DNA from: Lama glama
Lineage: Eukaryota
DNA length: 64,000 nt
Reading direction: 5' to 3'
NCBI GenBank assembly: GCA_028534125.1
Contig: CM052839.1
Coordinates: forward strand, 45,570,001 to 45,634,000
This document shows, piece after piece, positions 42,801 to 45,707 of the stretch (the stretch's first letter is position 1; each line of letters begins with the position of its first letter). The notes beneath the pieces were generated by a model. The model was not told where the DNA came from and ran no database searches. It saw only the letters and a program-made list of their open reading frames with translations. The position numbers and the translations under genes were made by a program.

Positions 42801-45707
42801 GCTCAACCAGCTGGACGAGCGCAGGCGTAGGTGCCACGGGGCTCCGGTCAGGGGCCACTGCACCCTCTCAGGGCTGGGGGTGCCTTCTGGGCCAGGCGTT
42901 GTCCGGCCGGGGGAGGTGTGGGCCTCGGGCTCCACAGCAGGCCACCCCCGTGGCAGGAAATACCCACTAAGCGCAGGCCAGCCAGCCCAGGGGAGAGAGT
43001 GTGCGCGCGTGTGTGCGTGCACACGTGCGCCCTTCCTGGAGCCCAGCTGCCCGCTGTCCTGCTGACAAGCACTCGGCAGGGCCGAGGGAGGCCCAGGCAG
43101 TGCCCGGAGCAGGTGCCCAGCGCTGGGCATCCCGTGCTTCTGGCCAATGCCAGGGTCCCCCAGCTCTGCCCTCCCCCGCAGTGTACTACGAGGGGCTGCA
43201 GGACAAGCTGGCGCAGATCCGGGACGCCCGGGGGGCCCTCAGCGCCCTGCGGGAGGAGCACCGGGAGAAGCTGCGCCGCGCGGCCGAGGAGGCGGAGCGC
43301 CAGCGCCAGATCCAGCTGGCCCAGAAGCTGGAGATCATGCGGCAGAAGAAGCAGGAATACCTGGAGGTGCAGCGGCAGCTGGCCATCCAGCGCCTGCAGG
43401 AGCAGGAGAAGGAGCGGCAGATGCGCCTGGAGCAGCAGAAGCAGACCATCCAGATGCGGGCCCAGATGCCCGCCTTCTCCCTGCCCTATGCCCAGGCACG
43501 TGCTCAGCCTTGCCCCGTGCCCTCGGGGGACGCTGGGGACCGAGAACTGCTCTGACGTCCTGTCTCTGTCCTCAGCTCCAGGCCATGCCCGCGGCAGGGG
43601 GCGTGCTGTACCAGCCCTCAGGCCCCGCAAGCTTCGCAGGGACCTTCAGCCCCGCGGGCTCAGTTGAGGGCTCCCCCATGCACGCCATGTACATGAGCCA
43701 GGCGGCCCCGGCCACCAGCGGCCCCTACGCCAGCATGCCCGGGGCCACAGCAGGTAATGGGCTGGCGGGCGGTGGGGGAGCCACGGAGCAGCCGAGACGA
43801 GCCCAGATCACTACCCTGTTCTTCTGTTTTCCCTCGATGTGACGTCAGACTTACTAGAAGAGCGGTTCAGAGAGGTGCTTAGGTTCCCCGGGTGTTCCCA
43901 TGCCCCACCCTGCCTCTTCCCACGCGCACTCGCTTCTGGCGCAGGTTAGGGTGAGTGGCAAGCCGGGCGCCCTCTACTGTTAGAGGCTTCAGTGTGTTTC
44001 CTCAACCAGGACGCTTCCGTGTGGCCTCGGCACAGACGCCAGGCCAGGGGCTTCTCAGGCCGTGGTGCGACTGTGTCCCCCCCAGCTGGGCTCTCATGCA
44101 TGGCCCGAGACACCCTTTGTGCCAACAGGAAACCTGTCAAGTGTTGTGTTCAGCTGTTCTGCCTCATTCATCTCCTTTAATCTAGAACATTCCTCAGTCT
44201 GCCTTAGGGTTCTGTGACAGACTTCCCAAAGAGCACCAGCCCCGCCATCTTGCAGACCACCCGTCAGTTTGGGTGTCGGGTCTCCTGATGGCACACGTTG
44301 CAGGGGTCTCTCTCGTCCTCGTCAGTTTCATTTATCACCCTCTTGTGAGAACATGAAACGTGAACTTGGTTCCAAAGTCACAACGAAAAGGACAACTTAG
44401 AGGAAGGCCCCCCGCACCCCCCCACCCTCAGGGTGGGGGCTCATGCCTCCTTTCCCCTGCAGATCCCAGCATGGTGAGTGCCTACATGTACCCAGCGGGG
44501 GCCGCTGGCACCCAGGCAGCCCCCCAGGGCCCCCCAGGGCCCACCGCCAGCCCAGCCTACTCGTCCTACCAGCCCACCCCTACGCAGGGGTACCAGGTAG
44601 GCGGGTGGGCCACGTCTCTCCCCACAAAGCCCCACTGTGAGGCACTTGGGCCCAGCTCTCTCCCGTTCCCCCTTCCCTCCACAGAACGTGGCCTCCCAGG
44701 CCCCGCAGAGCCTCCCGGCCATCTCCCAGCCCCCACAGTCGGGCACCATGGGTTACATGGGGAGCCAGTCCGTGTCCATGGGCTACCAGCCTTACAGCAT
44801 GCAGGTGAGAGGCCGTGGCTGTGGGGTCAGCAGCCAGGGGCGGGCTGGGGACCCTTGGCAAGAGGCTGGGGGTGCACTGTCAGGCTCCGCCCTTCTCCCC
44901 ACCCCATGTCCTCTCCACTGGGCTCTCTTTGCTGGTTGGCATTTGATTTTCCAAGTCAGAAATGCTGTTTCTCTGGTTTCAGAGCTCCCTTTTCAGGTTC
45001 ATTTTATTCTCCACAGAACCTCATGACCACCCTCCCCAGCCAGGATGCATCTCTGCCACCCCCGCAGCAGCCCTACATCTCGGGGCAGCAGCCCATGTAC
45101 CAGCAGGTGAGCCTCTCCCAGGGCCGCCATCACAGCTCATGACCCCAGGGAGGGCCGTGCTGGAAGCCAGCTCAGGCTTCGCTCTGAGCCCCCATCGGCC
45201 GCAGGGCTGCCCTGGGAAGGTGGCCAGTGCTGGCAAGGACTGCTGCTTTGCAGGCAGAACCCGACGTAAACACAGTCACACCTGGGGATGTCGAAAGCAC
45301 GTGTTTACTTAAGAGCCCTAGGCCATATCAGCTCAACTCCATAGACATTAATCAGAATTTCCTGGGGTCTGTGCTCTGCTGGGGACAGGAGGACCGGGAG
45401 CCCGTGACAAGTGGAAAGAGGGAGTCAAGAGACCACCGCTGGCGCAGCCCAGGCTGGGCCTAGTTGGGGGCCTGCAGACCTGGGGCAAGGTTGGGACACA
45501 AGTGCTCTAGAAGAGCCATTAGAGGGTGGGGAGGCGGGGGCCTAGGGAGGGAAGAGGGAGGGAGGACAGACCAACAGCCCCCATGTGTCCCCCTAGATGG
45601 CGCCCTCCAGCGGCCCTCCCCAGCAGCAGCCCCCAGTGGCCCAGCAGCCACCTGCACAGGGGCCACCGGTGCAGGGCAGCGAAGCCCAGCTCATCTCGTT
45701 TGACTGA
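33855..45707 (+). CDS. HGS: Hepatocyte growth factor-regulated tyrosine kinase substrate (HRS, ESCRT-0), 776 aa, 21 coding exons
   Basis: Exons 33855-33891, 35343-35427, 35659-35734, 36000-36092, 37639-37762, 38351-38403, 38834-38902, 39549-39673, 40676-40754, 40828-40926, 41019-41114, 41710-41748, 41826-41966, 42065-42124, 42619-42826, 43182-43495, 43576-43753, 44463-44596, 44685-44804, 45017-45106, 45597-45707 (2331 nt). VHS domain, FYVE (RKHHCRACG), UIM (EEEELQLALALSQSE), PSAP, coiled coil, C-terminal clathrin box LISFD. Confidence 0.98.
34925..35110. mobile_element. MIR element in HGS intron 1
   Basis: AGCTGTGTGATTTCAGGCAGCATCTTCACCTCTCTGTG...TCTGTAA...TGTAAGGGTTAAATGAG. Confidence 0.65.

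Follow-up and report, generated by a model that had tools for sequence, protein, structure and literature searches.

An ancient intron, about 80 nt long, appears to have been lost precisely from the HGS gene on the camelid line, a timing that we infer from sequences of other mammals. In the window, that is, the whole stretch of 64,000 nt of Lama glama DNA that was analysed (contig CM052839.1, positions 45,570,001 to 45,634,000), the two exons that would have flanked this intron are joined into one, with no trace of the intervening sequence, and the introns on both sides of the fused exon are still in place.

The fused exon of HGS

The HGS coding region extends from position 33855 to 45707 of the window, on the + strand as all the window features given below, and its 21 coding exons join into 2331 nt that encode 776 amino acids and end in one terminal stop. 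The protein is identical to that of Vicugna pacos (P0022) at 776 of 776 residues, the alpaca protein carrying the Pfam domains VHS, FYVE and Hrs_helical, and it matches the Camelus ferus protein P0021 at 770 of 776 residues, with 6 differing sites, which assigns the window to a South American camelid. The gene still has 20 introns, all of them ending in AG (20/20), 19 of them starting with GT and one with GC.

The fused exon occupies positions 43182 to 43495 (314 nt), and no other coding exon of HGS is as large. It is preceded by an AG acceptor and followed by a GC donor (gcacgt), and it is translated without a stop in a single frame as YYEGLQDK...IMRQKKQEYLEVQRQ...LPYAQ. The junction between the former exons, ...aagaagcag|gaatacctg..., falls at 43354/43355, which corresponds to base 1557 of the 2331 bases of coding sequence. 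The 173 nt before it (43182 to 43354) end in MRQKKQ, the 141 nt after it (43355 to 43495) encode EYLEVQ...LPYAQ, and the reading runs on in phase 0 without any insert in KKQ|EYL. The fusion is exact, no base having been gained or lost, since 173 + 141 = 314 agrees with the exon sizes of the fish-type locus L005 described below, and the 104 amino acids of the fused exon show zero residue differences from the named proteins of cattle, horse, cat and blue whale. The uninterrupted 314-nt exon and the total of 21 coding exons, both read from the sequence in the preliminary description, agree with the exon itself and with the full gene model.

An exon-exon junction in genomic DNA is also what a processed pseudogene or a retrogene would present. 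Unlike a retrogene, the HGS gene of the window keeps its twenty introns, its upstream CpG-rich start and its neighbouring genes, those upstream matching the N-terminal part of the Camelus model P0028; it is, hence, the parental gene. The introns adjacent to the fused exon are a GT-AG intron of 355 nt upstream (42827 to 43181) and a GC-AG intron of 80 nt downstream (43496 to 43575). The fused exon is moreover single in the genome, with one match by DNA (1 candidate), one by protein (1 of 6 candidates) and one by the 22-nt junction pattern. The earlier argument that flanking introns are retained, and that the locus is consequently not a retrocopy, is thus borne out. A pattern scan of prokaryote genomes gave 5 bacterial matches, which were set aside as chance.

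The same junction would be seen if the assembly had been joined or polished at this site with spliced sequence, either cDNA or a retrocopy, and the assembly is indeed a fragmented one, with 1,072,352 contigs. Such an origin is very improbable, however. The other 20 introns are all present and there is no N near the junction (the closest N runs are at 6613 to 6712 and 6878 to 7065); DNA, protein and pattern searches found no processed copy of the fused-exon region with which the locus could have collapsed; and an assembly built from DNA offers no way in which a single junction could come to be exactly spliced. When sequencing runs were searched for words of the region 42600 to 43800, 20 of the 24 rows contained part of it, and three DNA-type runs, from two organisms and two studies and one of them possibly the assembly's own source, contained 0.94-0.96 of the 124 words, a share that is blind to the junction because an intron would cost only about 3 words.

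The GC start of the downstream intron (CAG|GCACGT) is replaced by GT in the fish-type locus L005 and in the invertebrate locus L019. It also fits the read-through models P0007 (Saguinus) and P0028 (Camelus ferus), and the GC donor at 43496 is overlooked by gene predictors, with the result that HGS is truncated.

The intron in other animals

Outgroup DNA was obtained by a scan of metagenome contigs that returned 20 loci. The locus L005 encodes a peptide that matches named proteins of teleosts and would accordingly be of fish type. Here KKQ|EYL is interrupted by a GT-AG intron of 89 nt (3172-3260), with exons of 173 nt before and 141 nt after it, the two sizes that the preliminary description gave for the human exons. 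The invertebrate-type locus L019 contains a 173-nt exon followed, at the same base, by an intron of 145 nt (3172-3316), and its presence there suggests that the KKQ|EYL intron is older than vertebrates. In two further invertebrate-type loci, L008 and L009, KKQEYLQ is followed by a break-off (around base 383 and 463), which suggests that their intron is placed four codons further downstream than in vertebrates.

The mammalian evidence consists of open reading frames (ORFs) translated from raw contigs, which begin in intron sequence and continue into the exon and were placed by shared peptides, and of gene models. Three protein searches provided the best 120 of 1122, 1021 and 228 matches, respectively, and the motif MRQKKQ, used for counting, matched 259 of the 331 retrieved proteins, the others being mostly of invertebrate type. 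Among these best matches, KKQ|V, the reading expected from a GT donor, is found in 53 of the 56 vertebrate-type proteins that have a non-exonic N-terminal flank (110 of 114 when cluster members, which are not independent, are included). Shared peptides place P0143 and P0200 with fin whale, P0154 with Homo/Pan, P0153 and P0223 with voles and woodrats, and P0155 with Myotis, while P0152 and P0213 are probably ruminant; a residue that P0156 has in common with pig proteins also occurs in those of peccary, bat and seal and does not single out pig. The lengths that these ORFs imply for the lost intron are 83 nt in the whale-like, 77 nt in the primate-like (P0154), 73 nt in the rodent-like and 85 nt in the probably ruminant frames. 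The intron-translated flanks of the whale-like P0200 and of P0213 match the 3' part of the 355-nt upstream intron of the window, and both are therefore orthologous pieces from close relatives. That upstream intron also contains, at 42995 to 43030, an alternating GT/CA-like stretch, which would be old in artiodactyls, as its translated surroundings match P0200 and P0213 too.

Gene models point in the same direction. The cat model P0173 and P0167, whose label bmy_02259T0 we take to be that of the bowhead whale, skip the 141-nt exon as a unit, and in the fin-whale model P0165 the frame changes directly after KKQ. A donor at KKQ is needed in the cat P0173 and the fin-whale P0165 because both skip the exon or leave the frame right there. 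The jump from KKQ to TIQM in P0176 (Rhinolophus) is not at an exon end and the model was dropped as evidence. Two Camelus ferus models, P0021 and P0028, represent spliced sequence and are uninformative on this intron, and no camelid genomic ORF was found among the best 120 of the 228 matches to the camelid open frame 42971 to 43552.

Whales are closer to camelids, and the cat is an outgroup. As cat and whales appear to keep the intron, its loss would have taken place on the camelid line once this had separated from that of the whales. The exact deletion at KKQ|EYL that had been proposed from the llama sequence is therefore supported by orthologues that carry the intron at an identical position and in an identical phase, as seen in the DNA of L005 and L019, in the KKQ|V proteins and in the cat and fin-whale models.

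The opposite polarity, with the intronless camelid state ancestral and the intron gained in other lineages, could appeal to the remaining 18 of the 20 metagenome loci, which show no GT after KKQ or KKR (17 read straight on and 1 lacks the motif), though most of these are invertebrate-like and several resemble transcripts. Gain would, however, require that the intron was inserted at one identical base several times over, separately in fish, an invertebrate, primates, rodents, bats, cats and whales, and losses but almost no gains are reported for mammalian orthologues genome-wide in PMC3257199. Given L005, L019 and the 53 KKQ|V proteins, it is hardly credible.

The 3 proteins of the 56 that read fused are P0252 and P0254, which are named, spliced fish gene models, and P0140. 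The latter and its cluster member P0186, each from a single short contig, are rodent-like, and in both the fused KKQ-EYL stretch has translated intron sequence before and after it. Since the same flanks recur in the intron-bearing ORFs P0184, P0185, P0160 and P0190, these two are most simply read as partly spliced RNA. There is a slim chance that they derive instead from intronless DNA alleles, in which case the site would be one of recurrent loss in mammals, beside the camelid loss, and P0140 and P0186 would show a living mammal to be polymorphic for the presence of the intron, offering a direct test of mechanism and selection.

Routes to an exact deletion

The loss was probably caused by cDNA-templated conversion. 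In this process the LINE-1 machinery would copy HGS mRNA into cDNA, and recombination in the germ line with the reverse-transcribed, spliced HGS RNA would erase the intron, some 80 nt long. If the conversion tract was short (at most 314 nt) and both began and ended within the two exons, a single intron would be taken out. Alternatively, a partly spliced template would remove only the KKQ|EYL intron, and a template of this kind would exist if P0140 and P0186 are partly spliced RNA. The retention of the neighbouring introns of 355 and 80 nt counts against this route, for which adjacent loss and 3' bias are statistical predictions that are not required of each event.

Reverse transcription of HGS mRNA in the germ line has left two polyadenylated 3'UTR retrocopies at separate loci, and it must have happened at least twice, because the copies are at two loci. 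They were found with the last exon and the 3'UTR as query, which gave five further genome matches, four of them belonging to one locus (C1 and small side contigs). The source of the copies is the 3'UTR stretch from 45952 to the poly(A) site at 46293. Retrocopy 1 (G000:C1:7423104-7423241, L028, with the side contigs L024, L025 and L027) is about 350 nt long, 5'-truncated and 85% identical; its poly(A) tail coincides with the poly(A) site of HGS, and its target-site duplication, some 16 nt long, contains one mismatch (L024/L025/L028). There is an N gap in the chromosome at this locus. In L027 the copy is reduced to its 3' ~140 nt, beyond which other sequence follows, so L027 is either a variant allele or a misjoin. 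Retrocopy 2 (G000:C1:68878887-68878951, L029:2488-2557) comprises about 70 nt of the 3' end of HGS mRNA, is polyadenylated and 87% identical, and has a possible, degenerate target-site duplication. Being 3'UTR-only and 85-87% identical, the retrocopies are old and are not the donor, and DNA, protein and 22-nt pattern searches detected in the assembly no cDNA copy across the HGS junction. In rat, 0.041 introns were lost per gene with processed pseudogenes versus 0.008 otherwise (PMC3652778). Nothing in the DNA betrays a conversion templated by RNA of the gene itself, and the mechanism is for this reason undemonstrable for one event.

Repair of a double-strand break within the short intron, by joining its 5' and 3' ends at their shared CAG|G, would dispense with the RNA step altogether and is a possible, if doubtful, cause. 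The junction of the window (43352 to 43355), site of the lost phase-0 intron, reads CAG|G, and the corresponding 4-nt direct repeat of both intron ends was measured in L005 and L019. CAG|G is likewise implied, by peptide reading, for the probably ruminant P0152/P0213, but the acceptor of the whale-like ORFs may be CAG or TAG. Repeats of at least 4 nt occur in just 3 of the 20 remaining introns of the gene, the lost intron was short and was lost alone, and in worms and flies microhomology and small size predict intron loss (PMC3698931). On the other hand, the same gene keeps a 73-nt intron with a 6-nt repeat, processed HGS copies exist in the genome, and the data of PMC3698931 are from nematodes and flies, whereas those from mouse and rat in PMC3652778 favour reverse transcription. 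Break repair and the cDNA route are indistinguishable for HGS because their products are identical. The statement that exact deletion is the signature of reverse transcription is hence overstated, since microhomology-mediated deletion at the CAG|G repeat would yield the same product; what stands of it is that reverse transcription is the likelier cause, in view of the 3'UTR retrocopies.

Related intron losses and consequences

Precise intron loss is a described class of events in mammals, of which HGS is an ordinary new example. Zhu and Niu (2013; PMC3652778) give 45 precise losses in mouse and 86 in rat versus 148,176 conserved introns, and many of the genes concerned lost a single intron. 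The llama case is like these in being a single exact loss in a soluble-protein gene with processed copies, and unlike them in its camelid lineage; Hgs is in the orthologue list of that paper and not among its lost introns. TOGA2 (bioRxiv 10.64898/2026.06.30.735536) describes precise deletions of NARS intron 3 in Old World monkeys and in GAPDH of human, mouse and pika, where exact deletion likewise fuses the flanking exons and is ascribed to likely recombination with processed pseudogenes. Neither HGS nor camelids are mentioned in its main text, although its annotations may contain the event unremarked. With the losses studied by van Schendel and Tijsterman (2013; PMC3698931) HGS shares a short intron and matching bases at both junctions (AG|G), but those are from Caenorhabditis and Drosophila, whereas HGS is a single mammalian event for which this kind of loss is indistinguishable from the cDNA route. 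A literature search, which had the loss list of Coulombe-Huntington and Majewski (2007) outside its scope, found no report of an HGS intron loss and no statement on the exon count of human HGS, and the camelid loss is most likely not in print.

The loss is probably neutral, because it leaves the protein as it was, and it is not expected to have a phenotype. Spliceosome assembly is inhibited in vitro by an exon of 300 nt, and in vivo problems of exon size appear from 432 nt in a gene with long introns (both cited in PMC2614967). The 314-nt exon is probably tolerated, as it lies between short introns (355 and 80 nt), and together with its GC donor it constitutes a small test of exon definition. 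The gene affected is a conserved one of endosomal sorting, and the intron that it lost would predate the vertebrates. Since precise loss is rare in mammals (131 versus 148,176 in PMC3652778), each clean case enlarges a small catalogue made up mostly of rodents, primates and dog; HGS also shows why one event cannot decide between models, given that retrocopies and microhomology coexist in it. Its use as a phylogenetic marker, suggested earlier, could hold within camelids, as a possible presence/absence character, but the value of such a marker is modest.

A second presence/absence difference in HGS concerns the YSMQ|NL intron, which is present in the camelid gene (window 44805 to 45016) and absent from the fish-type gene (L005:4221-4235). 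Finally, the HGS-like model P0004 of Corythoichthys (322 aa) contains three tandem copies of the RRAAEEAE...LPYAQ region, which are due either to duplication or to an annotation artefact.
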